NCBI GenBank assembly: GCA_963813245.1
Contig: CAWEYE010000005.1
Coordinates: 114,588-178,587 of the forward strand
Origin: an uncultured Actinomycetes bacterium
Lineage (GTDB): Bacteria > Actinomycetota > Thermoleophilia > Gaiellales > JAICJC01
Direction: 5' to 3'
DNA: 64,000 bases
The translations under genes were made by a program, and so were the position numbers. This document shows positions 9,883-57,219 of this stretch, piece by piece (the stretch's first letter is position 1; the number at the start of each line of letters is the position of its first letter). Below the pieces are notes generated by a model that saw nothing but the letters and a program-made list of their open reading frames with translations, was not told the origin of the DNA and searched no databases.

Positions 9883-12060
9883 ATGGCGGCGATGGTCGCG
9901 GCGGTCGCAGGCCAGGCGCTGCTGGCGACCCTCGGCCTCGACACAGGCGCCGACATCGCCGGTGGCCTGGTCGTGCCCCTGCTGGCGGCTCTGATCGTCG
10001 CCGAGCGGGTGCGGCGGACACATTCCGAGCGCACCGCCTGGTCCGCGGTCGTCGTGGCCCTCGGTCTTCTGATCGCCGGCAACGTCTACTGCGTGCTTGC
10101 GTTCGCCGATCCCGCGAACCCGCCCGTGCCCTCGCCGGCCGATATCGCCTACCTGTCCGAGTACCCGCTGATGTTCATGGCGCTCGGGCTGCTCGTGCGT
10201 GACCGGGCCGTCGGCTTCCGGCCCAGCCTCTGGATCGACGGCGTCGTGGCGACGCTCAGCGTCGCCGGAGTGTGGACAGCGCTCGATCCGCCGCACGTCG
10301 CCCACGCCGGGTCGATGCTGGAGGCGCTCACCCTGCACGCCTACGTCGTCGGCGACGTCGTCCTCGCCGCCGCCGCCGTCGGCACCTTCGCCCTGTTCTC
10401 GTGGCGGCCGGGGCCGGCCTGGCTCGTGATCGCGGGCGGCCTGGTGGCGCAGTCGGCCGCCGATCTGCTCACCACCATGTCCTCGAGCGGGCACAGCGCC
10501 GCAGTGCTGCAGCTGATCGGTGTGCTGTGGAGCGTGGCCGTGGCAACGTTCATCATCGCGGCCTGGCTGCCGACCACCAAGCGCCCCCACCACACGATCG
10601 CCGGCTGGCGGGCGCAGGCGCCGACGGTCGCCTTCTCGACCGTCGCGCTGGGCACGCTCGTGGCCGGCGTCGCCGGAGACGTGCCGGTGCTCGCCCGCAC
10701 CCTTGCGACCGCCGCCGTCGCCGCCGCGATGCTGCGGCTCCTGTGGACGGCAAACGAGAACGTCGGCCTCGAGTTCGCCCGCAGGCTCGCGGTCACCGAC
10801 GATCTGACCGGCCTCGGCAACCGCCGCCAGCTGTGGACCTCGATCCGGGCGGCCTGCGCGCGCCGGGAGCGGTTCGCGTTGCTCATGATCGACCTGGACG
10901 GCTTCAAGGAGGTGAACGACGCGCTCGGCCACAATGCGGGCGACCTCCTGCTGCAGGGGATGGCCGACCGGTTCTCGCGCCTGGTCCGGCCCGACGACGT
11001 GCTCACCCGCCTGGGCGGCGACGAGTTCGGCGTGCTCGTGCGGGCCTGCGACGAGGCCGCCGCGGTGGCCTTCGCCGACCGGGTCGGCGAGGTGCTCGAG
11101 ACCGGCTTCGAGGTGCACGGCATCACGGTCCGCGTCGCGGCCAGCGCCGGCATCGTGATCGCCACCGGCGACGACACCGCGCCGGAGCTCCTGCGCCGGG
11201 CCGACGTCGCGATGTACGAGGCCAAGCGCAATCGCAGCCGCCGCGAGGTGTACGACCCCGAGACCGACCAGCGCTCACCCGCCCGTCTGGGGATGATGGA
11301 CCAGCTGCGCCGGGCGATCGAGTCGCGCACGCTCGCCGTGCACTACCAGCCGAAGGCGCATCTGCGCTCGGGCGAGGTGTACGGGCTCGAGGCGCTCGTC
11401 CGCTGGCGCATGCCCGATGGCGAGCTGCTGATGCCGGCGGAGTTCCTGCCCCTGGCCGACAACGCCGGGCTCATGTACGAGCTGACGCTGTGCGTCCTCG
11501 AGCGCGCCCTCGCCGACGTGGCCCGCCTGCGCGTGCGCCGGCCGCAGCTGACGGTCGCGGTGAACGTGCCGCCGGTGGCGATCCTCGACGCCAACCTGGC
11601 GCTCGACATCGCCCGCCTGCTGGCCGCCGCCGGCCTGCCCGGCCGGGCTCTCGAGATCGAGATCACCGAGGAGAGCCTCATGGCCGACCGCCTGCGCGCC
11701 CGGTCGCTGATCGCCGGCCTGCGCGAGCTCGGGGTGGCCATCTCGATCGACGACTACGGCACGGGCTACTCGTCGCTCCCGTACCTGCGCGACCTCGAGG
11801 TCGACTCGCTCAAGCTCGACCGCTCGTTCGTGACCGGCCTCGCCCACAGCGGCAAGGCGGGCACCATCGTCGCCTCCACGATCAAGCTCGCCCACGCGCT
11901 CGGCCTGTGGGTGGTGGCCGAAGGGGTCGAGTCGAGCGACGACTGGCTCGCGCTCGACGCGCTCGACTGCGACGCCGTCCAGGGCTTCCTGCTCTCACGC
12001 CCCGTCCCGATCGAGGTCATCGCCGGGTCGCTCGGGTCCGCCGACGCGCAGGCCGCGTGA
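9883..12060 (+). CDS. Membrane-anchored GGDEF-EAL c-di-GMP signalling protein
   Basis: About 9 predicted hydrophobic helices, then GGDEF (RLGGDEFGVL) and EAL (EALVRW...DDYGTGYSSL...KLDRSF...EGVE). Start taken at ATG 9883 (MAAMVAAVAG). Confidence 0.9.
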   Translation: MAAMVAAVAGQALLATLGLDTGADIAGGLVVPLLAALIVAERVRRTHSERTAWSAVVVALGLLIAGNVYCVLAFADPANPPVPSPADIAYLSEYPLMFMALGLLVRDRAVGFRPSLWIDGVVATLSVAGVWTALDPPHVAHAGSMLEALTLHAYVVGDVVLAAAAVGTFALFSWRPGPAWLVIAGGLVAQSAADLLTTMSSSGHSAAVLQLIGVLWSVAVATFIIAAWLPTTKRPHHTIAGWRAQAPTVAFSTVALGTLVAGVAGDVPVLARTLATAAVAAAMLRLLWTANENVGLEFARRLAVTDDLTGLGNRRQLWTSIRAACARRERFALLMIDLDGFKEVNDALGHNAGDLLLQGMADRFSRLVRPDDVLTRLGGDEFGVLVRACDEAAAVAFADRVGEVLETGFEVHGITVRVAASAGIVIATGDDTAPELLRRADVAMYEAKRNRSRREVYDPETDQRSPARLGMMDQLRRAIESRTLAVHYQPKAHLRSGEVYGLEALVRWRMPDGELLMPAEFLPLADNAGLMYELTLCVLERALADVARLRVRRPQLTVAVNVPPVAILDANLALDIARLLAAAGLPGRALEIEITEESLMADRLRARSLIAGLRELGVAISIDDYGTGYSSLPYLRDLEVDSLKLDRSFVTGLAHSGKAGTIVASTIKLAHALGLWVVAEGVESSDDWLALDALDCDAVQGFLLSRPVPIEVIAGSLGSADAQAA

Positions 12061-42860: not shown

Positions 42861-43932
42861 CTACCCGTTTGGGTGGGTTTTGGCCGCCCGCACGAGCTCG
42901 TCGCCGACCTCGCCGGTGCCGGCCGTGCCGCCCAGATCGGGGGTGCGCACGGCGCCCGCGCCGAGCACGCCTTCGAGCGCCGCCATCACCCGGGCCGCCG
43001 CCGCACCCTCGCCGAGGTGGTCGAGCATCATCGCGCCGGCCCACACGGCGCCCACCGGGTTTGCCAGCGAGCGGCCGGCGATGTCGGGTGCCGACCCGTG
43101 CACCGGCTCGAACAGGCCCGGGCCCGTGCCGGCGGGCGAGACGTTCGCGCTCGCGGCGAGGCCCATCCCGCCCTGGATGGCGGCGCCGATGTCGGTGATG
43201 ACGTCGCCGAACAGGTTCGAGGCGACCATGACGTCGAACCGCTGCGGCTGGGTGACCATGTAGGCGCAGGCGGCGTCGACCAGGATCCGGTCGAGCTCGA
43301 CGTCGGCGAAGTCCGCGTGCACGGCGCCCACGATCTCGTCCCACATGACGAAGTGGTGCGGGCTCGCGTTCGACTTCGTGATGCTCGCGAGCTTGCCGCG
43401 CCGCGACCGGGCGAGCGCGAACGCGTGGCGGACGACGCGCTCGACCCCGACGCGGGTGAAGACGTCCACCTGCAGGCCGACCTCGTGGCCCATGCCGACG
43501 TGCACGCGCCCGCCGAGCGCCGGCGTACTCGCCCTCGGTGTTCTCGCGCACGCACACCATGTCGATGTCGGCGGCGGAGCGGCCGGCGAGCGGCGTGGCC
43601 ACGCCGGGCAGGAGCCGGATCGGGCGGATGTTCAGGTAGAGGTCGAAGCGCTGCCGGATCGGCAGCAGCAGGCCCCACAGGGTGACGTGGTCGGGCACGC
43701 CGGGCGAGCCGACCGCGCCGAGGTAGACGGCGTCGTGCTGCTCCAGCCGGCGCAGTCCGTCGGCCGGCATCATCGCGCCGGTGCGGGCATGGTGGTCGCT
43801 GCCCCAGGGCAGGTGCTCCCACTCGAGCCGGCACTCCTCGCCGCAGGCCGCATCGAGCACCCGGATGCCCTGCTCGATCACCTCCGGCCCGACGCCGTCG
43901 CCGCCGATCACGGCGATCCGGTGCCGCCTCAC
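42861..43932 (-). pseudogene. Isocitrate/isopropylmalate dehydrogenase family (tartrate dehydrogenase-like), one apparent +1 insertion at ~43518
   Basis: RIAVIGGDGVGPEV...MVCVRENTEGEYAG | LGGRVHVGMGHEVGLQVDVFTR...SNLFGDVITDIGAAIQGGMGLAASAN. The two pieces are in adjacent frames. GTG 43932 or the upstream 43968 could be the start. Confidence 0.8.
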
Positions 43933-43942
43933 CGCGCCACCG

Positions 43943-44771
43943 TCAGCCGCCCTTGATCGCGCCGGCAACCAGACCCCGCATGAAGAAGCGCTGGCCGAAG
44001 ATGTAGAGCGCGAAGATCGGCAGGGTCGCGATCGAGAGGCCGGCCATCACCACGGGGATGTTGAGGTTGTAGCGGTTCTGGAACCCGGTCAGCCCGGCCA
44101 TCAGCGTGAGCGAGTTCTCGCTCTGCAGGAAGACGAGGGCGATCAGAAGCTCGTTCCACACCCACAGCGCGTTCACGACCGCGAGCGTGATCAGCGGCGC
44201 GCCGGAGAGCGGCACGACCACGCGCAGGAACACCTGCAGCGACGAGGCGCCGTCGATCTCGGCGGCCTCGATCAGCGACCGCGGGATCGTGCGGAAGTAG
44301 GCCGCGAGCATGTACACCGAGAACGGCATCATCAGGCCGACGTAGATCGCGATCACGATCCGGCGGGTGTCGATCAGGTTGAGCTCGGCGCCGAGCAGGA
44401 AGAGCGGCACGACCAGCACCACCGGCGGGATCACCATCAGCGAGATGATCAGCGAGAGCATCACCTCACGGCCCACGAACTGCCAGCGCGAGAGCCCCCA
44501 GGCGGCCAGCGACGCGAACACGAGCGTGATCACGACCGACGCGATGGTCAGGATCAGGCTGTTCAGGAGCCACTGCGGGAAGTGGTTGTTGAGCGCCGTG
44601 TGGTAGGCGTTCAGGCGCGGCGACGGTGGGCAGGCCCAGGGGATGGTTCAGGAAGTCGCTCTGCGTGCGCAGCGACCCCGAGAGCATCACGTACACCGGC
44701 AGGAGCGCCGAGACCGTGAACGCGATCAGCACGAGCTGGCGCAGGAGCCGGCCGCCGCGCTCGACGATCAT
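43943..44771 (-). pseudogene. Carbohydrate ABC transporter permease (MalG-like), one apparent +1 insertion at ~44621
   Basis: MIVERGGRLLRQLVLIAFTVSALLPVYVMLSGSLRTQSDFLNHPLGLPTV | PRLNAYHTALNNHFPQWLLNS...EAAEIDGASSLQVFLRVVVPLS (EAA loop). Confidence 0.82.
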
Positions 44772-45692
44772 GCCGGCCTCCGGCGCGAGTAGCCGAAGCG
44801 GACGACCAGGAAGGCCGCGGCGACCGCGGTCACGCCGATCAGGAGCAGGGTCGCGGCAGCCGCCGCGAGCCAGCGGGATGTCCGACGTGAACGCGTTCTG
44901 GTAGATGTAGGTCTCGGTCACCTGGGTGGCCTGGCCGGGGCCGCCGCCGGTCATCACGAACACGTAGCTGAACACCCACGACATGAGCGTGATCGCCTCG
45001 ATCACGAGGTAGAAGCCGATGATCGAGCGCATCATCGGCAGCGTCACGTGCCAGTGGGTGCGAAACCAGCCGGCGCCGTCGACGCGCGCGGCGTCGAAGA
45101 CGTTCTGCGGCAGCGACAGCAGCCGGGCCAGGAAGAGGATCACGCCGAAGCCGAGCTCGCGCCAGATGATCACGCCCGCGAGCGAGCGCAGCGCCCAGTC
45201 GGGGTTGCCCAGCCAGTCCTGCACCAGGAAGTTCAGGTGCAGCGTCTGCAGCGTCGTGTTGAGCGCCCCGTGCAGCGTCAGGAGCTCGCCGAAGAGCACG
45301 CCGACGACGGTCACCGGCAGCATGTAGGGGATGAACACCGCCACGCGGTGGAAGCGCCATCCGCGCATGCCCTCGTACAGCAGGATCGCCATGAGGAGCG
45401 CGATCCCGATGATGATCGGGAGCGTCAGGAGCAGGCGCAGGTTGTTGCCGAGCGCCTGGCGGAAGAACGGGTCGTCGATCGCGATCCGCAGGTTGCCGAG
45501 GCCGACCGGCTCGCCGTCGCGGTGGGTCGCCTCGATCACGAGGCGGTAGATGCTGTAGCCGTAGACGACGCCGATCGCAGCGAGCGCGGGCGCGATCCAC
45601 AGGAACGCCTGCCACGGAGGGCGGCGGGAGCGGCCGCGTACGGCCGCCCCCGTGCCCCGGTCGCCCGGTGACGCTACTGCTGTCCCGTCCAC
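44768..45692 (-). pseudogene. Carbohydrate ABC transporter permease (MalF-like), one apparent +1 insertion at ~44870
   Basis: ...WQAFLWIAPALAAIGVVYGYSIYRL...FDAARVDGAGWFRTHWHVTLPMM...TETYIYQNAFTSDIPL | LAAAAATLLLIGVTAVAAAFLVVRFGYSRRRPA. The stop overlaps the next ATG (ATGA). The GTG 45692 start is tentative. Confidence 0.78.
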
Positions 45693-47038
45693 TTCTTGAA
45701 GTTGTGCGATCAGGTCGGGCTCGATCGTCCTGATCCGGGCCATGTCGGACTCCATCGTGGCGGCCGCCTGGGCGGCGGTCGTCTTGCCGGCGAACATCAG
45801 CTGCACGCCGCCGAAGTTGGCCTTCGAGTCGAGGTCGGTGGGGATGAAGTTCTCCAGGTAGGGAGCGCCGTTCTGCGAGTAGTCGTACAGCTGCTTCACC
45901 TGCGGCACGTCGATCTGCGAAGAGTCGAAGCGGTCGTCGGCCGGCAGCGCGCCCGTGTCCTTGTAGAACAGCGCCAGCTCCGCCGGCGTGTGCATGAACA
46001 TGATGAAGTCGGCCGACTGCTGCTTGTACGGCGACCACGAGCTGATCGCAAGCGTCTGCGACGTCGAGCCCAGCTTGCCGGCGCCGACGCCGTTTGCGTA
46101 CTTGGGCATCGTCATGACGCCGACCTTGCTCGCCGCCGACCTGGGTGACGAACTTGCGCACGTCGGTGCCGGCCGTGACCGTCATCGCGCTCTTGCCGTC
46201 GACCCAGGTCTGCTGGGCCTGGTACAGGTCGAGCGAGCCGATGTCGTCGTTCCAGCACTTGGCGCTGATCATCTGCCCGAGGCGCGTCCACCACTCGGCC
46301 AGGTCGGGGTCGGTGAACTTCTTCGTCCCGACGACGGCCTGCTTCAGCTCGTCGACCGAGGTCAGCGACTCCGAGCCGAGGATCGAGAAGAGCCATCCGC
46401 CGAACCAGCCGTCCTTGACGCCGCCGGCGATCGGGGTGATGCCCTTCGACCGCAGCGTCGAGCAGTCCGACAGGAGCTGGCTCCAGGTGGTGGGCGCCGA
46501 GGCGATGCCGGCCCGGGCGAGGACGTCCTTGCGGTACAGGATCGGGAACGACGGCTGCACGTACCACGGGGCGCTCCAGAGCTTGCCGTCCCAGGTGTCC
46601 TCGGACGCGTTCAGGTAGTGCGCACGCTCGGCCGCCGGGATGTAGTCGGAGATCGGCGCGAGGTTCCCGTCCCACGCGTCCTGGAGCGCCCAGATGCCGC
46701 CCCAGCGGTACTCGATGTCCGGCCCCTTCTTGGCCTTCGCCGCCGCGGCGAAGTTGGGCATCAGGTTGTCGGTCGACTGCAGCACGGTGTTGATCTTGAT
46801 GTTGGGGTGCAGCGGCCTCGTACTTGCTCACCGAGGTGGCGAGGAACGTGGACAGGCCGTGCGCCTCCTGGTTGCCCCAGTACCACATGGTCAGGGTGAC
46901 CGGGCCGCTCGGCGCGGCCGAGCTGCCGCCTCCGGAGCTGCCGCCGCTGCTGCTGCTGCCGCAGGCCGCTGCGGCGAGCACGATCATGGTGGCGGCCGCA
47001 AACCGCCGCCGGCTGCTTGTGAGGAGCCTGCTGGACAT
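45674..47038 (-). pseudogene. ABC transporter extracellular solute-binding protein (sugar type), three apparent +1 insertions (~46810, ~46128, ~45704)
   Basis: MSSRLLTSSRRRFAAATMIVLAAAACGSSSSGG (lipobox)...SVSKYEAA | HPNIKINTVLQSTDNLMPNF...TAGTDVRKFVTQVGGE | KVGVMTMPKYANGVGAG...IRTIEPDLIA | NFKKWTGQQ-stop. GGGAGGG lies upstream of the ATG. Confidence 0.8.
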
Positions 47039-47065
47039 GAACCCTCCCTGGGACGCTGGGAAGGA

Positions 47066-47097
47066 AGTAAACGCTATAGCATTCCCGGCGTCAAGAG
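47066..47097 (-). promoter_or_regulatory. Promoter/operator element copy A: (minus strand) TCTTGACG-N9-GCTATAGC-g-TTTACT
   Basis: TTGACG and TTTACT are separated by 17 nt, with the perfect palindrome GCTATAGC in the spacer. It lies ~21 nt upstream of the SBP start, in the divergent region shared with the ATPase gene. Confidence 0.5.
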
Positions 47098-47133
47098 CGC
47101 CCGGGGGCGCATGTGCGATGAGGAGTCTCTGAC

Positions 47134-48292
47134 GTGGCCGGAATCGACCTTCTCAACCTCACGAAGGTGTACGCCAACGGGGTGCGGGCCGTCGACGCGA
47201 TCGACCTCGAGATCCGCGACGGCGAGTTCATGGTGCTCGTCGGCCCGTCCGGCTGCGGCAAGTCGACGCTCCTGCGGATGATCGCCGGGCTCGAGGAGGT
47301 GTCGGAGGGCACGGTGCGGATCGACGACCGCGACGTGACCGCGCTCGCACCGCGGGCGCGCGACATCGCGATGGTGTTCCAGGACTACGCGCTCTACCCG
47401 CACATGACGGTGCGCCAGAACCTGGCGTTCGGGCTCAAGCTGCGCCGGGTGAACCGGCGCGAGATCGAGCAGCGCGTGCAGGCGGTGGCGACGACGCTCG
47501 GCCTGCAGGACTACCTCGCGCGGCGGCCGGCGGCGCTCTCGGGCGGGCAGCGCCAGCGGGTCGCGATCGGCCGCGCGATGGTGCGCGAGCCGAAGGCGTT
47601 CCTGATGGACGAGCCGCTCTCGAACCTCGACGCCAAGCTGCGGGTGACGATGCGGGCCGAGCTCGCCCGGCTGCACGAGCGCCTGGCGGTGACGACGGTC
47701 TACGTCACCCACGACCAGACCGAGGCGATGACGCTCGGGCAGCGGGTCGCCGTGATCCGCGACGGCACGGTGCAGCAGTGCGACACGCCGCAGGAGCTGT
47801 TCGACCGGCCGAACAACCTGTTCGTGGCGGCGTTCATCGGGTCGCCGGCGATGAACCTCGTGGCGGCGACGGTCGACGACACGACGATCCGCTTCGCCGA
47901 CATCGCCCTGCCGCTGGCCGAGGGGGCGGCCGTGCGCGGGCCAGAAACGCGACGTGATCCTCGGGATCCGGCCGACCGACTTCGAGCTCCCCGACCGCGC
48001 CGCCGACCCGGGGCTGCCGCGGATCCGGGTCGCGCCCGAGGTGATCGAGGGCCTCGGGGCCGAGACCAACGTGATCTTCCCGCTGGCGGCGCCGCGGGTC
48101 GACAGCGACACGGTGCGGTCGGCGGCCGAGGGCGGCGACGTGGGCACGCTGCTCGCCGATGACGACCGCGCGCTCTTCACCGCCCGCATCGCCACCCGCA
48201 CGCCGCTCGCCCAGAACGGGCCGATCGAGCTCGTGGTGCACAACGCGAGCCTGCACTTCTTCGACCCGGACACCGGCGCAGCGCTGCGCTGA
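47134..48292 (+). pseudogene. Sugar ABC transporter ATP-binding protein (MalK-like), one apparent +1 insertion at ~47944
   Basis: [34 protein letters not shown]...[14 protein letters not shown] | [15 protein letters not shown]...LHFFDPDTGAAL. GTG start. Confidence 0.85.
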
Positions 48293-48296
48293 ATAC

Positions 48297-48311
48297 CGGT
48301 GCCTGGCACCG
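48297..48311. terminator. Palindrome CGGTGCC-T-GGCACCG just after the ATPase stop, followed by a second GC-rich hairpin
   Basis: 7+1+7 palindrome read directly. A GGTCCCCGGGGCCGGAGACC stem follows at 48317..48336. There is no clear U-tract. Sits between convergent operon ends. Confidence 0.3.
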
Positions 48312-48345
48312 CTTGCGGTCCCCGGGGCCGGAGACCGTGCCGGGA

Positions 48346-48377
48346 ATGAAAAGCTCTAGCATCTAGCATGTCAAGAG
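48346..48377 (-). promoter_or_regulatory. Promoter/operator element copy B: (minus strand) TCTTGACA-N9-GCTAGAGC-t-TTTCAT
   Basis: Same architecture and spacing as copy A (17-nt spacer). It overlaps the stop codon of the muconolactone-isomerase-like gene and points into the 3' end of the convergent ATPase gene. Confidence 0.4.
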
Positions 48378-48652
48378 CCGGACTCGAGCGGGTGCACGGC
48401 GAGAGGCTCCACGCGGACGTCCATGTAGGGCCAGAGCGGCAGCGAGGTCACGGCAGCGTGGAGCTCGGTGGCGTCGGCGGCGCGGTAGAGCGAGATGTTC
48501 GCGAACCGGCCGGGCAGCCGCCAGATGCGCACGAGCAGGCCCTGCTCGATCAGCTCGCGGCCGCGCCGGTGCTCGGCGGCGAGCAGCTCACGGCGCCGGT
48601 CCTCGGGCAGGCCCTCCGGCAGGGTGATGTCGATGTGGACGAGGAACTCCAT
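48371..48652 (-). CDS. Muconolactone delta-isomerase family protein
   Basis: MEFLVHIDITLPEGLP...GLLVRIWRLPGRFANISLYRAADATELHAAVTSLPLWPYMDVRVEPLAVHPLE matches the family pattern end to end (93 aa). Confidence 0.75.
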   Translation of the reverse strand: MEFLVHIDITLPEGLPEDRRRELLAAEHRRGRELIEQGLLVRIWRLPGRFANISLYRAADATELHAAVTSLPLWPYMDVRVEPLAVHPLESGS

Positions 48653-48654
48653 CG

Positions 48655-49644
48655 TCACCCCGCCGCCCGGCCGGCCTCGGCGTAGGCGGGGTTCACAATC
48701 GCCGCGACCGGCCTTCCGGCCAGGAAGTCGATGGCCTGACGGGTGGCGAGCACGGGCAGGTCGGCCAGGGCCGCGGCCGAGTACCAGGCGGCATGCGGGC
48801 TGAGCGTGACCGTGGGCAGCTCCCGCAGCGGGCTCTCCGCCGGCGGCGGCTCGGCCTCGAACACGTCCAGCCCCGCCCCGGCCAGATGGCCGGCGTGCAG
48901 GGCATCGGCCAGTGCGCGCTCGTCGACGAGCCCGCCGCGGCAGGTGTTGACCAGGCGCGCCCCGCGGCGCATGGCGGCGATCGCCGCAGCGTCGATCATG
49001 TGCTGCGTGTCGGCGGTCAGCGGCAGGTGCAGCGTGAGGATGTCGGCGCCGCCGAGCGCCTCCGCCAGCGTCGCGGGCGTCAGGCCGTCGTCGCGGATCC
49101 GCCGCTCGCTCACGTAGCGGTCGTGCACGAGCACCCGGAAGCCGGTCGCCCGCAGCGCCGCCGCAACCCGCACGCCGATCCGGCCGTAGCCGATGACCGC
49201 GACGGTGCTCGTCGAAGGCCGGGCGGCATCGGGATACGAGGCCGGCGCCGCCCACCGGCCGGCGCGCACCGCCCCGTCGAGCGCGCGCACGCCCCGGGCC
49301 TGGTCAAGCACGAGCGCCAGGGTGTGGCAGGCGACCTCCTCGATGCAGTAGTCCGGCGTGTTGGCGACGGCGACTCCGCGCTCGGTGGCCGCCTCGACGT
49401 CGATCATGTCGTAGCCGATGCCGAGCCGGCTGATCATGCGCAGGCCCGGCATGGCGTCGAGCACGCGGGCCGAGACGGGCGCCCACTGCACGATCAGCGC
49501 GTCCGCCCCCGCGCACTGGTCGATCACGTCCTGCTCGCTGCGGCAGTCCGCCCTGCGCGCCTGCAAGCCCGCCTCATCTAGCAGCCGCTCCTCGGCGCCG
49601 TCCGAAGGCAGGTCGGAGTCCGTGACCACGACGAGCGGGCTCAT
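48655..49644 (-). CDS. D-isomer-specific 2-hydroxyacid dehydrogenase (PGDH-like)
   Basis: VAVIGYGRIGVRVA NAD motif, NTCRGGLVDE, and LDVFEAEP...PHAAWYS. Start taken at ATG 49644. Confidence 0.88.
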   Translation of the reverse strand: MSPLVVVTDSDLPSDGAEERLLDEAGLQARRADCRSEQDVIDQCAGADALIVQWAPVSARVLDAMPGLRMISRLGIGYDMIDVEAATERGVAVANTPDYCIEEVACHTLALVLDQARGVRALDGAVRAGRWAAPASYPDAARPSTSTVAVIGYGRIGVRVAAALRATGFRVLVHDRYVSERRIRDDGLTPATLAEALGGADILTLHLPLTADTQHMIDAAAIAAMRRGARLVNTCRGGLVDERALADALHAGHLAGAGLDVFEAEPPPAESPLRELPTVTLSPHAAWYSAAALADLPVLATRQAIDFLAGRPVAAIVNPAYAEAGRAAG

Positions 49645-50324
49645 GCCGGATCCTCGGGCACACCGGCCAGCGAGCGCTCGATCCGGTGCGCGGCGACCTG
49701 GATGTGGCGCGCCATCTCGGCCTGGGCCCGCTCGGGATCGCCGCCGGCGATGGCGTCGACAAGGTCGACGTGGCTTGCGGCGTGGGCGCGCAGCTCGTGG
49801 GCGGGCAGGCTGCGCGTCGCCGCCCGCAAGAACGCGGCCACCCGGCCGCGCACCTGCGCAGCCACCTCGTTCAGCAGCGAGTGGTCGGAGATCTCCCACA
49901 AGAGGCCGTGGAACTCCTGGTCGAGCTCAACCAGCGCGTCGACGCCGCCCGCGTCGGCCGCGTCGGCCATGCGCGCGGCGATCGACCGCAGCCGGGCCTC
50001 GGCCGCGGGCGTCAGCCGCTCCTGGGCGCGGCGCACGACAAACCCCTCGAGCACGATGCGAAGCGACGAGATCTCGGCCAGCCCGACCGGCGTCAACCCC
50101 GCCACCCACGCACCCCGGCGTGGGATCCGCTGCACCAGGCCCTCGTCGGCCAGCCGCGCGAGCGCCTCACGGACGGGGATGTGCGAGACGCCGAGCTGGC
50201 CTGCGATCGTGCGCTCCACGAGCTTCGTGCCGGGCCGGTAGACGCCGTCCTGGATCGCGGCGCGCACGCTCTCGGCGACCCGGTCGGACAGGCTGTGGTC
50301 GCGGAGTCGCTCGAGCTCGGTCAT
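49641..50324 (-). CDS. GntR family transcriptional regulator (FCD domain)
   Basis: LSDRVAESVRAAIQDGVYRPGTKLVERTIAGQLGVSHIPVREALARLADEGLV plus an FCD domain. Start taken at MTELERL (the track ORF extends to 50360). Confidence 0.85.
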   Translation of the reverse strand: MTELERLRDHSLSDRVAESVRAAIQDGVYRPGTKLVERTIAGQLGVSHIPVREALARLADEGLVQRIPRRGAWVAGLTPVGLAEISSLRIVLEGFVVRRAQERLTPAAEARLRSIAARMADAADAGGVDALVELDQEFHGLLWEISDHSLLNEVAAQVRGRVAAFLRAATRSLPAHELRAHAASHVDLVDAIAGGDPERAQAEMARHIQVAAHRIERSLAGVPEDPA

Positions 50325-50328
50325 CGCC

Positions 50329-51081
50329 TCAGACGATCCAGCCCTGCGCCGACCAGCCACCGTCGACCCGCAGCGTCGTGCCCGTTACGAACGAGGAGTC
50401 CTCGTCGTCGGCCAGGTAGGCGACCGCGCGGGCGATCTCGTCCGGCTCCCCGAAGCGGTGCATCGGCGTGCGGTTGTGGTAGCGCTCGACGTCGATTACG
50501 CCATCGTCGATGCCCTTCTGGACGAGCGCGGTGCGGGTGACGCCGGGGGCGACCGCGTTCACGCGCACGCCGCGGCCGGCCCACTCGATCGCGAGCACCT
50601 CGGTCATCGCGACGACGGCCGCCTTGGCCGCGCAGTAGGCCAGGCGCATCGGGAACGCGTCCCACGCGTTGATCGAGCTGATGTTGACGATCACGCCCGA
50701 GCCGCGCTCGAGCATGTGCCGCCCGACCGCCTGCGAGCACAGAAAGACGCCGGTCTGCATGATGCCGATCGAGGTGTCCCAGTCAGCGTCCGAGTACGTC
50801 TCCGACGGCCCGGCGATGGCCACGCCGGCGTTGTTCACGAGCACGTCGATGCGGCCGTGGCGCGTGAGCGTCTCCGCCGCCGCGGCCTCGACGGCGGGAC
50901 GGCTGGACACGTCGCACGCATGCGCGCTGCCCGCGAGCGCCTCGGCGGCAGCGGCGGCGACCTGCGCGTCGACGTCCCAGACGGCGACGGTCGCGCCGGC
51001 CGCGTGGAAGCGGCGGCCGATCGCCTCGCCGATGCCGCGGCCGCCGCCGGTGACGACGCAGACCTTGCCGGCCAGGCTCAC
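50329..51081 (-). CDS. SDR family oxidoreductase
   Basis: TGGGRGIGEA, NNAG, and the YCAAK catalytic motif. 250 aa. Confidence 0.9.
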   Translation of the reverse strand: MSLAGKVCVVTGGGRGIGEAIGRRFHAAGATVAVWDVDAQVAAAAAEALAGSAHACDVSSRPAVEAAAAETLTRHGRIDVLVNNAGVAIAGPSETYSDADWDTSIGIMQTGVFLCSQAVGRHMLERGSGVIVNISSINAWDAFPMRLAYCAAKAAVVAMTEVLAIEWAGRGVRVNAVAPGVTRTALVQKGIDDGVIDVERYHNRTPMHRFGEPDEIARAVAYLADDEDSSFVTGTTLRVDGGWSAQGWIV

Positions 51082-51554
51082 CGGGCACCGGCCGCGGGCG
51101 GAGGGGCGAAGAGCTCACAGACGTGCCCGTCGGGGTCGCGCACGTACACGCACCGGCCGCCGGCGTTGGCCCCGGTGTCGACATCCGCCGGCGGGCCGAG
51201 CGGCGTGCCGCCGGCGGCGACGAGCCGCTCGAGCAGGCCGTCGACGTCCGGGCAGGCCACGCAGATGTGGCTGAAGCCGACGTCGGCCGGGCGCCCGCTC
51301 ACATGGCCGCCCGGCGGCTGCACGTATTCGAAGAGCTCGATCCGGGGGCCGCCGCCGGGGAACTCCAGGTGCACCATGCGCACATGTGCGCCCGGCTCGC
51401 GCACAATCGCCTCCAGATAGCCGCCCCGCTTCTCCTGGCTCATCGCCTCGCGCATCCCCAGGGCGTCGCGCCAGAACAGGAGCGACCGGTCGAGGTCGGA
51501 GACCGTCAGGCCGGTGTGGACGATCGCCGTCGCCGGCGGGCGCTCGCCGCTCAT
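51078..51554 (-). CDS. VOC (glyoxalase/bleomycin resistance/dioxygenase) family protein
   Basis: HTGLTVSDLDRSLLFWRDALGM...FSHICVACPDVDG...VYVRDPDGHVCEL. Confidence 0.8.
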   Translation of the reverse strand: MSGERPPATAIVHTGLTVSDLDRSLLFWRDALGMREAMSQEKRGGYLEAIVREPGAHVRMVHLEFPGGGPRIELFEYVQPPGGHVSGRPADVGFSHICVACPDVDGLLERLVAAGGTPLGPPADVDTGANAGGRCVYVRDPDGHVCELFAPPPAAGAR

Positions 51555-52657
51555 GCCGCCTCCGTCCCCGGATCGGCGGCGAGGCCGAGCGGATGGCGCG
51601 AGAGCACCCGGCAGCCGTCGGCGGTCACGACCGCCACGACCTCGACGCGTACACCGATGCCACCACGGTAGGCGCCGGGCTCGAGCGCGACGACCATCCC
51701 CGGCTCGAGCACGGTCGCGCTCTCGGGGACGATGCGCGGCTCCTCGTGCCAGCCGAACCCGAGGCCGTGGCCGGTGTGGTGCGGATAGGAGTGGCCGGCC
51801 GCCTCGACCTCGCCGCGGACGGTGCGGTCGACGTCACCGGCGACGGCGCCCGGGCGCAGCGCGCCCAGGCCGGTTGCGAGCGCGCTCGAGGCCAGGGCGT
51901 GCATCTGCACCGCCGCGGGCGGCGGCTCGCCGAGCGCCCAGGTGGCGCAGGAGTCGCCCCAGATCCCGTTCAGGCGCGGGACGATGTCGGCCAGGACCAG
52001 GTCGCCCGGCCGCAGCGCGCGCGGCACCGGCGGGCCGCCGATGTCCTCGGTGCGAGGGCCGCTCAGAAGGTCGGCGATCACCGTCGTGCGCGCGCCCGCC
52101 GCCGCCTCGATCGCTGCGCTCACCGCCGCCCACAGCTCGAGCTCCGAGGCGCCCTCGCGGGTGGCGGCCCGGGCCGCCGCGTGGCCGGCCTCGCACAGCC
52201 GCAGCGCCGCCTCGACCGCCTCCACCTCGGCCGGAGTCTTGCGGGCAGGCAGCATGGCCAGCCCGGCGAGCGGCGCGGCGACGGCGCCGGCGATGCCCGG
52301 CATGAGCCCCGCCGGCACGCTCGCACCGTCGACCAGCGTGCGCGCGGCGCTCGTGCCGGCGGCCGCCATCGCCGCACCCAGCGCCGCGGCCGCCCCGGCG
52401 AGCGGGTCAAGCGGCGCCGTCGTGAAGCCCTCGTAGAGGTGTGTGTGCTCGCCTGCGGGCGCCTCATCGACCGAGCACACGAGCTGGGCGGACGCCGCGC
52501 GCGCGGCCACGGCCAGCGCCGGCAGCTGGAACGGCGAGGGGCCGAAACCGACCTCGCCGGCGTGCCCCGTCAGCATGCGCACGAGGCCCGGATCGGCGGT
52601 CACGAGCGCGTCGGCGGCGCACGCGTCGAGGTAGGCCTCAAGGCGCGGATCGGCCAC
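51551..52657 (-). CDS. M24 family metallopeptidase (Xaa-Pro peptidase/creatinase fold)
   Basis: HHTGHGLGFGWHEEPRIV...VVALEPGAY...VRVEVVAVVT, the metal-ligand pattern of M24. Confidence 0.85.
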   Translation of the reverse strand: MADPRLEAYLDACAADALVTADPGLVRMLTGHAGEVGFGPSPFQLPALAVAARAASAQLVCSVDEAPAGEHTHLYEGFTTAPLDPLAGAAAALGAAMAAAGTSAARTLVDGASVPAGLMPGIAGAVAAPLAGLAMLPARKTPAEVEAVEAALRLCEAGHAAARAATREGASELELWAAVSAAIEAAAGARTTVIADLLSGPRTEDIGGPPVPRALRPGDLVLADIVPRLNGIWGDSCATWALGEPPPAAVQMHALASSALATGLGALRPGAVAGDVDRTVRGEVEAAGHSYPHHTGHGLGFGWHEEPRIVPESATVLEPGMVVALEPGAYRGGIGVRVEVVAVVTADGCRVLSRHPLGLAADPGTEAA

Positions 52658-52658
52658 C

Positions 52659-53396
52659 CTAGAACCCCACCGTCAGCGCGCCGTCGGCGACGATCCGCGC
52701 TCCGCTCACGTAGGAGTTCTCGGCCGAGAGCAGGAACGCGACCACGGCCGCCATCTCGTCCGGCTCCGCCGCTCGCCCGACGGGCAGCCGCCCGCTCTCG
52801 ACGTAGCCGGTGCGGAACCAGTCGGTCTCGAGCTCGTCCTGCCCGTCGACGACCGACATCCGCGTGCGCACGAAGCCGGGGGCGATGCTGTTGACGAGCA
52901 CGCCGCGGGAGCCGAGCTCGATCGCGAGCGTGCGCGTGGCCGCATCCAGGCCGCCCTTCGCCGCGTCATAGCTGAGCGCCGTGCGCTCGCTGTGGGTGGC
53001 GTGGATCGAGGTCACATTGACGATCCGCCCGCCGCCGTGGGCGGCCATGTGCAGGCCGGCCGCGCGGGCGAGCCAGATCGGGCCGTCGAGCATGACGCCG
53101 AGCTGGCGCCGGTAGGCGGCGACGGTGAGGTCGGCCACCGCCTCGGGGACGAAGATGCCGGCCACGTTCACGAGCCCCCAGATGCGGCCGTGCTCGGCGG
53201 CGATGGCCGCGATCAGCGCCTCGTGGCCGTCGATGTCGGCCACGTCCACCTCGAGCGACGGCGTAAACGTGCACGCCTCGACGTCGAGGCCGATCACGAG
53301 CCGGCCGTCGGCCTGCAGGCGCCGGGCCACGGCCGCGCCGATGCCGTTTCCGGCGCCGGTGACGACAACCGCTCCCGATCCCGAACCTGGCCCCAT
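52659..53396 (-). CDS. SDR family oxidoreductase
   Basis: TGAGNGIGAA and the YDAAK catalytic motif. First gene of a 7-gene overlapping operon. Confidence 0.88.
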   Translation of the reverse strand: MGPGSGSGAVVVTGAGNGIGAAVARRLQADGRLVIGLDVEACTFTPSLEVDVADIDGHEALIAAIAAEHGRIWGLVNVAGIFVPEAVADLTVAAYRRQLGVMLDGPIWLARAAGLHMAAHGGGRIVNVTSIHATHSERTALSYDAAKGGLDAATRTLAIELGSRGVLVNSIAPGFVRTRMSVVDGQDELETDWFRTGYVESGRLPVGRAAEPDEMAAVVAFLLSAENSYVSGARIVADGALTVGF

Positions 53397-53406
53397 GCTG
53401 GCGAAG

Positions 53407-53438
53407 AGTAAAGCGCTATAGCGTATAGCTCGTCAAGC
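53407..53438 (-). promoter_or_regulatory. Promoter/operator element copy C: (minus strand) CTTGACG-N9-GCTATAGC-gc-TTTACT
   Basis: 18-nt spacer, with the palindrome CGCTATAGCG (53414..53423). The -10-like box ends ~11 nt before ATG 53396, implying a near-leaderless transcript. Confidence 0.5.
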
Positions 53439-53459
53439 CCGAGCCGCTGCGAAGCGCCG

Positions 53460-54212
53460 CTACTGGATCGTGTAGCCGCCGTCGACGATCAACGTCTGCC
53501 CCGTCATCCACGCGCTGTCATCGCAGAGCAGGAACACGGCCGGGCCGCCCATGTCATCGGGCGCGCCGATCCGGCGCAGCGGGTGGCGGGCGGCGATCGC
53601 GTCGATCTGGTCGTCGAAGTCCGGCCGGTTGACGTAGGCGAGCGGCGTTCGCACCACCCCCGGCGCGAGCACGTTCACGCGCACGCCGCTCGGCCCGGCG
53701 TCGGCGGCGAGCGCGCGGGCGAGCGCGGTGACACCGCCCTTCGCGGCCGTGTAGGCGGCATAGCCGGGGGCGCCGATGTGGGCCAGCTGGCTGCCCACCA
53801 GCACGAACGAGCCCGCCCCCGCCGCCATCATGGGCCGCAGCGCCGCCCGCGCCACCCGCAGCGTCGCGCCGAGGTTCGCATCGAGGAACGCGCGCAGCTC
53901 CGCGTCGCCGCTCTCGCGCAGGTCCTCGCCCCGCCACACCGTCCCGGCGGCGTGGACGACCCCGTCCACGCGCCCGATGCGCGCGACCGCCGCGGCGATC
54001 ATGGCCTCGGGAGCGCCGGGGGTGAGCAGATCGGCGGCGTGGGCGTGCACCGCCCCCTCCGGCGCCTCGGCCACGAGCTCCCGCAGCGCATCCTCGCGAC
54101 GGCCGGACGCGAGCACCTGCGCACCTTCCCGCGCGCACCGAAGCGCGATCGCGCGCCCGATCCCGGACGACGCGCCGGTCACCACCACGCCTCGGCCTGC
54201 GAGCCTGCTCAC
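53460..54212 (-). CDS. SDR family oxidoreductase
   Basis: TGASSGIGRA and YTAAK. 250 aa. Confidence 0.9.
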   Translation of the reverse strand: MSRLAGRGVVVTGASSGIGRAIALRCAREGAQVLASGRREDALRELVAEAPEGAVHAHAADLLTPGAPEAMIAAAVARIGRVDGVVHAAGTVWRGEDLRESGDAELRAFLDANLGATLRVARAALRPMMAAGAGSFVLVGSQLAHIGAPGYAAYTAAKGGVTALARALAADAGPSGVRVNVLAPGVVRTPLAYVNRPDFDDQIDAIAARHPLRRIGAPDDMGGPAVFLLCDDSAWMTGQTLIVDGGYTIQ

Positions 54213-54271
54213 GACGGCGTAAGCATACGGTCGCGTGCCGCGGCGGCGCCGGCCCTCTATGATCGCCGGCC

Positions 54272-55006
54272 GTGAGCCCGTTCGATCCGCTGGACGTGCA
54301 GAGCACGCCGCACCTGGCGCCGCTCGTGCCGGTGCTGCCCATCCGTCTGCGCCGGACCGAGATCCTCACGATCGTCTACCGCACCGACCGCGCAGCCGCC
54401 GACGCGCTCATCCCGGCGCCGCTCGAGCTCACCGGCGACCTGTGCATCGCGCACGTCTACAAGATGCACGATGCAGAGTGGTTCGGCGTCTACTGCGAGT
54501 CGGCCTTCCAGATACCGGTGCGCCTGCCCGACGGCCGGCCCGCCGTCTACTCGCCGTTCCTCGTGCTCGAGTCTGACGGCGCCGTGGCCGCCGGCAGGGA
54601 GACCTACGGGCAGCCGAAGAAGGCGGGGCAGGTCTCGCTCGAACCGGCCGGCGACCTGCTGGTCGGCCGGATCGGCCGAAACGGCATCGACGTCGCCACG
54701 GCGACGATGTGCTGGAAGCAGACGCCCGCGGCGTCCGCCGACCTCGAGCGGCTGGTGCCGGGATCCGGCCTGAACGTGAACCTGCGCGTGCGCCAGGAGG
54801 AGGCCGGACGGGTGAGCCGCGAGCTGGTCGTGCGCTCGTTCACGGACGTCGTCGAGCACGAGGCGTGGACCGGCCCGGGCACGCTCGAGCTGCGCCCGAA
54901 CGCCCAGCTGCCCGTGCACGTGCTCGCGGTGGGAGCGGTCGAGCTCGCGCTTCACCGCATGTGCGACCTGACCCTCGCACCGGGCGCCGTCGTACACCGC
55001 TACTAG
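54272..55006 (+). CDS. Acetoacetate decarboxylase (ADC) family protein
   Basis: AGRETYGQPKK motif and overall ADC-like length. TATGAT sits 9 nt before GTG 54272, suggesting a leaderless transcript. Confidence 0.82.
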   Translation: MSPFDPLDVQSTPHLAPLVPVLPIRLRRTEILTIVYRTDRAAADALIPAPLELTGDLCIAHVYKMHDAEWFGVYCESAFQIPVRLPDGRPAVYSPFLVLESDGAVAAGRETYGQPKKAGQVSLEPAGDLLVGRIGRNGIDVATATMCWKQTPAASADLERLVPGSGLNVNLRVRQEEAGRVSRELVVRSFTDVVEHEAWTGPGTLELRPNAQLPVHVLAVGAVELALHRMCDLTLAPGAVVHRY

Positions 55007-55091
55007 CCGGTGGACGGCGTGAGGCTGCGCGCCGAGATCGAGGCGGCTGGGAGCTCGACCGCGGCTACATCGAGCGGTACCGGCTCGACCG

Positions 55092-56213
55092 CTAGCGGTA
55101 GCGCAGCCGCTCGACCAGCTCGTCGTTCAGCCGGATGCCGAGCCCCGGGCCGGCGGGAACGGCCACGCGGCCCTCGCCGTCGAGCGCGAACGGCTCGGTC
55201 AGCAGGCCGTTCACGAGCGGCGAGTCGGCGACCGAGAACTCCGAGTACGTGGCGCCCGCGATCGCCGCGGTGAAGTGCAGCGACGCGGCGACCAGGATCC
55301 CCGTCGAGAAGCAGTGCGGCACCACCTCGGTGCCGGTGGCCGCGGCCATCTCGGCGATCTGGCGGCCCACGGTGAACCCGCCGCAGCGGGCCAGGTCGGG
55401 CTGGAGCACGTCGACGTGGCCGAGCTCGACGAGCGCCCGGTAGGCGCGCAGGCCGGAGTCGGCCTCGCCGGCGGCGATCCGCACGGCCACCGCGTCGGAG
55501 AGCCGCCGATAGCCGTCGTAGTCGTCGGCCAGAAGCGGCTCCTCGAGCCAGTGGATCCCGAACGGCTCGAGCTCGCGCACGAGCTGGATCGCGCGCTTGA
55601 CCGAGTAGGCCATGCCACCGTCGATCATGAGCGCGCGCTTCGGCCCGAGCTCCTCGCGGGCCGCCGCCACGAGCTCGACGTCACGCTCGAGGCTCGCCCC
55701 CAGCGGCCCCCAGCCCAGCTTGAGCGCCCGGTAGCCGGCCGCGACCGCGCGGCGGGCGATGGCGCGCACCTCCTCGGGCGACTCCGGCATCACCTCGCTC
55801 GCGTACACCGGCATGGCCTCGGCGCGGCGCCCGCCGAGCAGCGCCGACACCGGCACGCCCGCCGCCTGCCCGGCGATGTCCCAGAGGGCGATGTCGATCG
55901 CGCTCATCGCGTGCAGGGCGGCGCCCGCCCGGCCGTAGTGGTAGGAGCCCCAGTACATGCGATCCCAGAGCTCGCCGACGCGGGCCGGATCCTGGCCGAT
56001 CAGGAGCTCCCCGAGGCCGCGGGCGACGGCGTGCGACGACGGCATCTCGACGATCGTGCGGGCGATATAGGGGGACGTGTCGGCCTCGCCGATCCCGACC
56101 AGACCCTCATCGGTGTGCACGCGCACGACGAAGGCGTCCTGCGTGCCGTCGGCGCGGGTCGTGTCGACCTGGTCGAGGCGCAGGATGATCGGTTCGATCG
56201 CGGTGATCTGCAT
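55092..56213 (-). CDS. Mandelate racemase/muconate lactonizing enzyme family (enolase superfamily)
   Basis: MQITAIEPIILRL...GIGEADTSP...KLGWGPLG...MIDGGMAY...WLEEPL...AAGEAD. Start taken at ATG 56213. Confidence 0.88.
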   Translation of the reverse strand: MQITAIEPIILRLDQVDTTRADGTQDAFVVRVHTDEGLVGIGEADTSPYIARTIVEMPSSHAVARGLGELLIGQDPARVGELWDRMYWGSYHYGRAGAALHAMSAIDIALWDIAGQAAGVPVSALLGGRRAEAMPVYASEVMPESPEEVRAIARRAVAAGYRALKLGWGPLGASLERDVELVAAAREELGPKRALMIDGGMAYSVKRAIQLVRELEPFGIHWLEEPLLADDYDGYRRLSDAVAVRIAAGEADSGLRAYRALVELGHVDVLQPDLARCGGFTVGRQIAEMAAATGTEVVPHCFSTGILVAASLHFTAAIAGATYSEFSVADSPLVNGLLTEPFALDGEGRVAVPAGPGLGIRLNDELVERLRYR

Positions 56214-56259
56214 GAGCGCGGGCGCCCGCCCGAGCGGGCCGTGCGATGATACCGACCTC

Positions 56260-57219
56260 GTGAAGGCACTCATGTGGCACGGGGGCGCCGACCTCCGCTA
56301 CGGCGACGAGCCGGCCCCCGAGGCCGGCCCCGGTGCCGTCCCGTTCCGGGTGACACTCGCCGGGGTGTGCGGATCCGACCTGCATCCGTACCGCGGCCAT
56401 CACGGGCCGCGCACGCCGCCGCTCGTGCTCGGGCACGAGGCGATCGGCCGGGTCGACGGCGACGAGCACCGCTATGTCGTGTTCCCAATCGTGTCGTGCG
56501 GCGCGTGCCCGGCGTGCCTGCGCGGCGAGGAGAACCTGTGCGCGACGCGCGGCCTGCTCGGGCTCGACCGGCAGGGCGTGTTCGCCGAGACGGTGGCCGT
56601 CGACCCGCGCTCGCTGACACAGGTCCCCGCGGCCGTCGACGACCGCGTGGCCGTGCTCACCGAGCCGTTCGCCTGCGCGGTCTCCGCGCTGCGCTACGCC
56701 GGCGCCGCCCCGGGGCAGCACGTCCTCGTCGTGGGCGGCGGCCCGATCGGGCTCCTCACCACCTACGCCTGCGCGATCCAGGGGATCGAGGTCTCGGCCG
56801 TCGAGCCGGTCGCGAGCCGGCGCGCGCTCGCCGCCGAGCTCGGGGCGACCCGAGTGGCGGCGGCGGTCTCCGACGCGAGCCTGCCCGTGGCCGACATCGC
56901 CATCGACGCCGTCGGGATCGAGGCCACGTGGCAGGGCGCGATCGGCAAGGTGCGCACGGGCGGCTCGGTGACGGTCATCGGCCTCGGCCAGGCCGAGGGC
57001 GCGGTGGCCGTCGGCGACATGGTGCGGCGGGCGATCACGCTGCGCGGCCACTACGCCTACACACGGGCCGACTTCGACGCCGCCCTTGCCCTGCTGGCCG
57101 AGCATCCGCCCGGCCTGGACTGGGTGACGGTGATGCCGCTGCGCGACGGGGCCGAGGCCTTCCGCCGGCTCGTCGAGGAGCCGGCGGGGACGGTCAAGGC
57201 GCTGCTCGCGACGCCCTAG
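56260..57219 (+). CDS. Zinc-dependent alcohol dehydrogenase (MDR family)
   Basis: GVCGSDLH, GHEAIG, CGACPACLRGEENLC and VVGGGPIGLL. GTG 56260 lies inside track ORF 56077..57219. Confidence 0.9.
   Translation: MKALMWHGGADLRYGDEPAPEAGPGAVPFRVTLAGVCGSDLHPYRGHHGPRTPPLVLGHEAIGRVDGDEHRYVVFPIVSCGACPACLRGEENLCATRGLLGLDRQGVFAETVAVDPRSLTQVPAAVDDRVAVLTEPFACAVSALRYAGAAPGQHVLVVGGGPIGLLTTYACAIQGIEVSAVEPVASRRALAAELGATRVAAAVSDASLPVADIAIDAVGIEATWQGAIGKVRTGGSVTVIGLGQAEGAVAVGDMVRRAITLRGHYAYTRADFDAALALLAEHPPGLDWVTVMPLRDGAEAFRRLVEEPAGTVKALLATP

Follow-up and report, generated by a model that had tools for sequence, protein, structure and literature searches.

The 64,000-nucleotide stretch of an uncultured Actinomycetes genome analysed here (hereafter the window) carries three similar short blocks on its minus strand, and the question that they raise is whether these are regulatory sites that tie a transporter to a catabolic operon, and if so what reads them. 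A sequence-only reading had proposed that they are copies of one promoter/operator element, that they link a sugar transporter with a seven-gene catabolic operon, and that the GntR-family regulator encoded within that operon binds them. Comparison with related genomes and with soil metagenomes leads us to regard the three repeats, from their sequence context, as real and conserved promoter-plus-operator sites under selection, built around the 12-bp palindrome AYGCTATAGCRT. The sites, denoted A, B and C, and their parts are as follows.

47066–47097, minus strand: site A, CTTGACGCCGGGAATGCTATAGCGTTTACT, in the 95-bp divergent region between a solute-binding protein (SBP) gene on the minus strand and an ATP-binding cassette (ABC) ATPase gene on the plus strand
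47090–47094, minus strand: TTGAC of site A
47071–47082, minus strand: perfect 12-mer of site A, ATGCTATAGCGT
47066–47071, minus strand: TTTACT of site A
48346–48377, minus strand: site B, CTTGACATGCTAGATGCTAGAGCTTTTCAT, most likely an orphaned promoter/operator relic
48370–48374, minus strand: TTGAC of site B, overlapping the stop codon of a muconolactone-isomerase-like (MIase) gene
48353–48360, minus strand: core of site B, GCTAGAGC
48346–48351, minus strand: TTTCAT of site B
53407–53438, minus strand: site C, CTTGACGAGCTATACGCTATAGCGCTTTACT, putative promoter and operator of the seven-gene operon
53432–53436, minus strand: TTGAC of site C
53415–53422, minus strand: core of site C, GCTATAGC, within the 12-mer at 53413–53424
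53407–53412, minus strand: TTTACT of site C

The existence of three copies on one strand at these coordinates was borne out by reading the sequence and by a shuffle test. All three are described by CTTGACR-N8-GCTAKAGC-N1-2-TTT, and in a search of the window with CTTGACR-N8-GCTAKAGC-N-TTT, allowing up to three mismatches, A, B and C were the sole matches; the chance expectation is 0.03 sites, and none of 100 dinucleotide-preserving shuffles reached three. The A/T-rich blocks of the element are conspicuous in a window of approximately 73% G+C. Its gap, N8 when counted from TTGACR, is N9 when counted from TTGAC, and TTGAC-N9-GCTANAGC has three exact matches in the window; the genome-wide pattern suggested by the sequence-only reading was right in its two blocks but wrong in its spacing, TTGAC-N10-GCTANAGC having zero matches in the window.

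Relatives of the locus were found by scanning species-representative genomes with the M24-family protein of the operon, which gives a sample independent of the motif. The related loci (numbered with the prefix L) are from uncultured Actinomycetes, Gaiellales and Thermoleophilia metagenome-assembled genomes (MAGs), and their M24 identity ranges from 92% down to approximately 52%. A site orthologous in position to C (C-type) is present in L001, L002, L003, L004, L006, L009 and L010; an A-type site is kept in L001, L002, L004 and L010, as well as in the metagenome contigs L092, L122, L134 and L140, and L001 and L002 have a B-type site as well. In the C-type sites of eight genomes (M24 protein identity 61–92%) TTGAC and GCTATAGCG are invariant, and in a palindrome-anchored alignment the 31-nt C-type motif has a pairwise identity of 86%, versus 33% for the adjoining upstream 30 nt, as would be expected if a cis-regulatory site is under constraint. 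Comparative footprinting, one of the checks put forward with the original proposal, is thus positive: because the sites are kept at orthologous positions while their flanks have diverged, the repeats behave as selected promoter/operator elements.

A second and wider sample was drawn from soil metagenomes with the pattern TTGAC-N9/10-GCTATAGCG-N0/1-TTTACT. This matched 92 contigs, versus a rough chance estimate of a handful for its 20 specified bases, and 80 of them were fetched; in these sites only the location, the neighbouring genes and the unspecified positions are informative. All of the fetched contigs are 66–76% G+C, and in each the motif is aimed at a gene start. The best match of the downstream open reading frame (ORF), callable at 74 sites, was the first short-chain dehydrogenase/reductase (SDR) of the window operon in 58 cases, the GntR regulator in 7 and the SBP in 4, with identities to the window genes of 55–95% for the first SDR and 55–65% for GntR. 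SDR-VOC-ADC-GntR-2-hydroxyacid dehydrogenase is the commonest arrangement, and frequent companions are an adjoining APC permease/SDR unit and a divergent DUF4432 gene.

The palindrome also occurs outside the full element. AYGCTATAGCRT was derived from 101 unique site contexts, in which the exact core GCTATAGC occurs; in total this core is found 133 times in 595 kb (window plus loci), with approximately 4.5 occurrences expected from base composition, and each context has flanks of a recognisable site class and lies just upstream of a gene. In 27 contexts neither TTGAC nor TTTACT is present at the canonical distance, and there the palindrome lies 1–25 nt before start codons, namely those of an upstream SDR, a second SBP, an SDR2-like gene and an M24-like gene. 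When the flanks of these skeleton-free sites are symmetrised, the two positions beside the core are A (81%) and C/T, and the flanking positions of the palindrome carry 1.1–1.7 bits even where the promoter skeleton is missing. Since the flanks persist where TTGAC and TTTACT are absent, the palindrome is conserved independently of the promoter boxes, and the operator is separable from the −35 and −10 boxes. A longer dyad comprising the palindrome plus TTTACT or TTGAC was considered and rejected, as it is asymmetric and as the sites without boxes keep the palindrome. Relative to the start codon or predicted transcription start, the palindrome occupies a range from about −21 to −1 in every site class; its position in the spacer or over the −10/start region points to the geometry of a repressor. 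Sites B and C have in addition a GCTA half-site 7 nt upstream of the palindrome (48361–48367 and 53423–53429, respectively), which A does not have; it reads ATGCTAGATGCTATAGC in the B-type and AGCTATACGCTATAGC in the C-type sites of the window's clade, and half-sites are recorded also for L001, L002, L103, L118 and L129. A literature search for the operator sequence, alone or together with GntR, returned nothing relevant.

The boxes around the palindrome were proposed to be a −35/−10 promoter, and this holds well for one half of the skeleton and less well for the other. All three window copies have TTGAC, which is also invariant at the orthologous sites found without the motif, and the spacer between the hexamers is 17 nt at A and B and 18 nt at C; across 62 unique sites, the distance from TTGACN to TTTACT is 17 nt in 33 and 18 nt in 29. 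The −10-like hexamers, TTTACT or TTTCAT, have the T at position 6 but not the canonical A at position 2, a base found in nearly all sigma-70 promoters. An ATG or GTG start codon follows TTTACT after exactly 6 nt in 29 of the 62 sites and after 5–10 nt in 20 more (6–9 nt at the orthologous C-type sites); with a gap of 6 nt, TTTACT would occupy −12 to −7 if transcription began at the start codon and the mRNA were leaderless. We therefore infer a −35/−10 assignment with leaderless transcription from these distances, and at site C and most of its orthologues the operon mRNA would be leaderless or nearly so. Two other candidates for the −10 were discarded: TAGCGT within the palindrome, which lies only 12 nt from TTGAC and which C-type sites replace by TAGCGC or TAGCGA, and TACTNN, from which transcription would start inside the start codon at many of the sites with a 6-nt gap. 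At one related locus, L008, the region upstream of the orthologous first SDR (approximately 9230–9275) reads TTGCAT-N17-TGTACT-N6-ATG, and the palindrome is absent.

The regulator encoded by the fifth gene of the operon has an N-terminal GntR winged helix-turn-helix (wHTH; PF00392, 72.7 bits versus a cut-off of 27, residues 12–74) and an FCD effector domain (PF07729, 86.7 bits versus a cut-off of 24.3, residues 84–209). Its closest solved structures are 7xp0 (E 1e-20) and Escherichia coli McbR/YncC (4p9f; E 2e-16), both aligned over the full length, as is the FCD structure 3fms; the best NCBIfam match, phnR_burk, reaches 103 bits versus a cut-off of 271. The predicted recognition helix reads GVSHIPVREA, and all 41 orthologues (52–97% identical) share G(V/I/T)SHIP(V/L)REA, where the closest solved homologues have SRGP, SITP, SFTP or SRTP. 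A GntR orthologue is encoded on 25 of the 28 contigs with at least 3 kb of sequence downstream of the site, and in 7 contigs a site stands directly in front of the GntR orthologue itself. In L004 the ATPase gene diverging from the A-type site is followed, in the same orientation, by the GntR gene, and L008, which has no palindrome, has no GntR orthologue within 10 kb either and so serves as a natural control. The annotated portions of the fetched loci show no other regulator genes. The earlier proposal of GntR as the candidate binder is supported by this co-occurrence, by the sites upstream of GntR orthologues and by the L008 control, and the embedded FCD-type protein is, as judged from its context, the best candidate binder of the GCTATAGC palindrome.

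The sites exist, are non-random, hold a fixed and conserved geometry and co-occur with the GntR gene. The reading that we favour, with a probability of roughly 0.75, is that every repeat combines a sigma-70-type promoter with an operator, located in the promoter's spacer, for a repressor specific to the pathway. In the outlined mechanism, the FCD-type GntR protein would bind, as a dimer, to the operator AYGCTATAGCRT, centred approximately 17 bp upstream of the predicted transcription start. Bound GntR would block RNA polymerase at site C, which would make the regulator control its own gene as well, and would likewise block site A and probably also the divergent promoter of the ATPase gene, until a substrate or intermediate of the pathway binds to the FCD domain and releases the repressor. 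The identity of the binder, repression rather than activation, and release by an effector are steps that we infer from the arrangement of sites and genes.

Several observations weigh against this reading. The metagenome sites were chosen with the pattern itself, and their specified positions are conserved by construction; the source organism's own sites were counted within the 64-kb window only. A scan of positions 43800–56400 for strict sigma-70 consensus promoters and for terminators called nothing, in keeping with the missing A at position 2 of the −10, and at site C itself the ATG lies 10 nt rather than 6 nt past TTTACT, which may give the mRNA a leader of 3–4 nt. The remaining points bear on the regulator. 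No GntR orthologue is seen on three of the 28 long contigs that carry a site, and in L005, which also carries one, none lies within 10 kb. In place of the GT/AC that marks FadR-subfamily operators (TKGT/ACMA; PMC4494728), the palindrome has CT/AG. The operator half-site is YGCTA, with C for the consensus G; the CT/AG is universal here by construction, as GCTATAGC was the search string. Because of this mismatch with the family consensus, the assignment of GntR is drawn from context only. The same facts speak for a different transcription factor, encoded elsewhere, as the reader of the palindrome, with the embedded GntR recognising some other sequence. This we consider unlikely, in view of the 7 contigs in which the site directly precedes a GntR orthologue, the joint absence of palindrome and regulator in L008 and the lack of other regulators in the annotated parts of the fetched loci; moreover, FadR-subfamily members with non-consensus motifs, e.g. 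BioR and NanR, are known (PMC4494728).

If GntR is the binder, it could still activate, or act dually, at a promoter that, for want of an A at position 2 of TTTACT, may be weak in itself and need help. The location of the palindrome in the spacer or over the −10/start region in all site classes is typical of a repressor, however, and the similar TGTACT of L008, kept without a palindrome, suggests a promoter independent of the operator. The only spacer-binding activators known to us are of the MerR type and act on spacers of 19–20 nt, whereas those here are 17–18 nt; we regard activation as improbable. Much less credit still is due to the idea that the 31-nt block is simply a strong lineage-specific promoter consensus, with GCTATAGC read by RNA polymerase or a special sigma factor rather than by a repressor. 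The block is indeed very uniform, and the TAGCGT inside it fits the actinobacterial −10 TANNNT, but this hexamer fails at site C and on its distance from TTGAC, the annotated portions of the fetched loci show no sigma-factor genes beside the cluster, and the two elements come apart in both directions: the palindrome occurs in 27 contexts without the skeleton, at varying distances from the start codon, and L008 has the skeleton without the palindrome. A mobile or recombination-related repeat (REP- or MITE-like), or an element acting at the RNA level, has next to nothing in its favour beyond the occurrence of three similar copies of about 31 nt within 6.4 kb, two of which, A and B, flank a single inverted gene. 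The copies are oriented toward gene starts at a fixed distance across diverged genomes while the spacer sequence varies; an Rfam scan of 43.8–56.4 kb gave no family matches, RNA folding predicts no significant structure around B, transcripts at leaderless sites begin downstream of the element, and a loop-less 8-bp palindrome makes no useful hairpin. Both the promoter-only and the mobile-repeat or RNA explanations are contradicted by the data.

Set beside characterised systems, the proposed switch most resembles the catabolic repressors of the FadR subfamily, such as E. coli DgoR, LldR, PdhR and UxuR/ExuR. It shares with them a regulator of GntR wHTH plus FCD architecture, a regulator gene embedded in the operon under its control, with the autoregulation that would follow, a short A/T-centred palindrome over the core promoter and the ability of one site in a divergent region to serve both operons, all of which have been described for the subfamily (PMC4494728). 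It differs in the core, TGCTA.TAGCA, with CT/AG for GT/AC, and in the host, an uncultured Thermoleophilia/Gaiellales-like actinobacterium. Operators of the subfamily are A/T-rich palindromes with TKGT/ACMA boxes, in which 2 or 3 nt separate GT from AC, and an extra half-site is often found 7–12 nt from GntR-family sites (PMC4494728), as it is, at 7 nt, in some of the sites here and in the repressor group just named. Relative to UxuR and GntR, with their canonical 2-nt GT-AC spacing, the present operator is of the same length and likewise A/T-centred, and it differs at one position per half-site. The subfamily also includes operators without a canonical GT-N-AC, TTATMKATAA for BioR and the direct repeats TGGTATAW for NanR (PMC4494728); unlike these, the operator here is still a simple inverted repeat. 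As to the protein, 7xp0 (a 'probable transcriptional regulator') and McbR are similar over wHTH and FCD but only distantly, and no shared operator is known for them; the first two residues of the motif in the recognition helix differ, SHIP here versus SRGP in 7xp0 and SITP in McbR. The His-Ile pair may underlie the specificity for CT/AG rather than GT/AC. Overall, the system would work like a FadR-type operator but fails its sequence hallmark.

The promoter half has its own counterparts. Leaderless mRNA is common in Actinobacteria and well documented in mycobacteria and Streptomyces, and site C and most of its orthologues would resemble such promoters in having the start codon 6–10 nt past a −10-like hexamer and no Shine-Dalgarno sequence; they are unlike them in the hexamer, TTTACT rather than TANNNT, and in the well-conserved −35 TTGAC, which is less usual in that group.

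The genes around sites A and C, for which ORF and domain annotation confirmed the context originally described, are listed below.

48371–53396, minus strand: seven-gene operon behind site C, with overlapping or abutting genes
52659–53396, minus strand: SDR, first gene of the operon
51551–52657, minus strand: M24-family hydrolase
51078–51554, minus strand: VOC/glyoxalase protein
50329–51081, minus strand: SDR, fourth gene
49641–50324, minus strand: GntR regulator with FCD effector domain (FadR subfamily; Pfam), fifth gene
48655–49596, minus strand: D-2-hydroxyacid dehydrogenase
48371–48661, minus strand: MIase-like protein
43943–47038, minus strand: ABC uptake operon downstream of site A (SBP and two permeases)
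45674–47038, minus strand: SBP (Pfam SBP_bac_1/8), with three +1 frameshifts
approximately 44768–45660, minus strand: permease 1, with a frameshift near 44870
43943–44771, minus strand: permease 2, with a frameshift near 44610
47134–48292, plus strand: MalK/MsiK-like ABC ATPase gene, diverging from site A, with a +1 frameshift at approximately 47937

The order of the operon genes is kept in L001 and L002. The first gene behind site C has its ATG 10 nt past TTTACT, with no Shine-Dalgarno sequence before it, whilst the SBP mRNA from site A is predicted to have a leader that carries one, AGGGAGGG. On the opposite strand, TAGCAT inside the site A operator could be the −10 of the ATPase gene, the intact orthologue of which in L001 encodes 385 aa and has 95% DNA identity to the window gene. 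The designation 'sugar transporter' is only a family-level guess, from a CUT1-type SBP with a MalK-like ATPase, and the genes are frameshifted. No equivalog for the regulator or the enzymes attained its cut-off in an NCBIfam scan, for which reason the substrate is not nameable. That a regulon joins the ABC transporter to the catabolic operon is supported by the sites in front of both, as judged from sequence; the claim that this regulon is small fits less well, the relatives having more than three sites.

Site B had been counted as a working link of the same kind, and this part of the proposal does not stand. Its gene context, missed earlier, is that it points at the 3′ terminus of the ATPase gene, which is convergent with it, and has no same-strand gene downstream; approximately 40 nt of what was formerly a 5′ leader follow it, and then the ATPase 3′ end. 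In L001 and L002 the orthologous B site has a perfect core, GCTATAGC, and lies approximately 60 nt upstream of a gene for a 491-aa APC-family permease, after which come an SDR, a DUF4432-like gene (L001 only), an SDR and then the convergent ATPase gene. B-type sites also precede APC permease orthologues in the distant metagenome contigs L082, L103, L118, L129 and L158, and the linkage of B with the APC gene is for this reason ancestral. The window aligns to L001 and L002 through site B and the approximately 40 nt of leader and then jumps beyond the ATPase stop codon, so that the 3–4 kb operon between site B and the ATPase gene (L001 14342–18474; L002 14342–17361) is absent at 48293–48345 of the window. 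The junction is variable among relatives, L010 having neither the MIase gene nor site B nor the APC operon. The core of the window's B site carries a T-to-G change (GCTAGAGC) that the orthologous B sites lack; as it is found only here, where the operon has been lost, the K of the proposed consensus probably reflects decay of this core rather than tolerated variation. Folding of the stub downstream of B on both strands gave structures no more stable than those of shuffles (z −0.6 and −1.6), with no sign of a structured small RNA, nor of a terminator beyond an ordinary hairpin. An arrangement of A and B as the ends of an inserted or inverted ATPase cassette was rejected, as they are direct repeats and as B belongs to a separate operon in the relatives. 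Site B is therefore most likely an orphaned, decaying promoter/operator and a non-functional relic; a transcript from it, if any, would enter the 3′ end of the ATPase gene in antisense direction.

The uptake region shows further signs of disruption. Three-frame translation and, for the SBP, alignment to the intact protein of L134 revealed +1 insertions relative to intact orthologues at approximately 47937 in the ATPase gene and at approximately 46813, 46134 and 45706 in the SBP gene, and other frame changes at approximately 44870 (permease 1), 44610 (permease 2) and 43500 (an IMDH/tartrate-dehydrogenase-like gene). At least seven frameshifts, at least six of them in the ABC transporter, are thus clustered between 43500 and 48000, whereas the examined genes at 48.3–57.2 kb have intact reading frames. 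Two explanations are suggested by this clustering, pseudogenisation of the uptake system or a local error of assembly; frameshifts are also present in several related MAGs.

As a kind of switch this one is ordinary, with an operator sequence of which the searched literature makes no mention, and it leaves the understanding of its class unchanged. Its value is that a gene cluster found repeatedly in soil metagenomes, in hosts that are all uncultured, now has a well-supported motif, AYGCTATAGCRT, and a candidate regulator. The motif is usable for delimiting the regulon in MAGs. The enzyme families do not suffice to name the pathway; its substrate would be identified by the effector of the regulator. 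The operator would extend the known range of the FadR subfamily to a CT/AG core, and the relic at site B and the promoter without operator in L008 offer natural controls for operator decay. A more far-reaching interpretation, which we put forward only tentatively and think doubtful as a whole, is that of an uncharacterised catabolic regulon widespread in soil Actinomycetota, comprising SDRs, M24, VOC, ADC-like, DUF4432, 2-hydroxyacid dehydrogenase and MIase-like proteins together with APC and ABC uptake, in which the CT/AG operator and the His-Ile helix amount to a specificity switch within the FadR subfamily and the window organism may be losing substrate uptake. The loss of uptake is suggested by the deletion of the APC operon, which leaves an orphan operator that is mutating, and by the at least six frameshifts in the ABC transporter, with enzymes and repressor intact. 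If true, this would be a clean natural example of a switch in operator specificity in the subfamily.

Some variation in the operator itself was also seen. In the window, positions 54213–54230, upstream of an SDR gene at 53460–54212, read CCGTATGCTTACGCCGTC; at the same position many metagenome contigs have CCGTATGCTATAGCG(TTT/CCC)ATG, where an operator precedes the start codon of the orthologous SDR by 3 nt. In the window and its close relatives this operator appears to be lost, with the TATGCT box kept. L005 has a variant site, TTGAC-N10-GCTATAGCGTGTACT, at 11170–11205, after its M24 gene and before a gene for a 539-aa SBP, and a degenerate CGCTATAGG upstream of its first SDR gene.

In many of the contigs L081–L160 a gene for a DUF4432 protein (aldose-epimerase-like, approximately 334 aa) diverges from the site in front of the first SDR or of GntR, as in L093 at approximately 2600 and L118 at approximately 1150, and its start codon lies 28–33 nt from the palindrome. 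This gene could have its −10 in the TAGCAT of the operator, and a single operator may there serve two divergent promoters.

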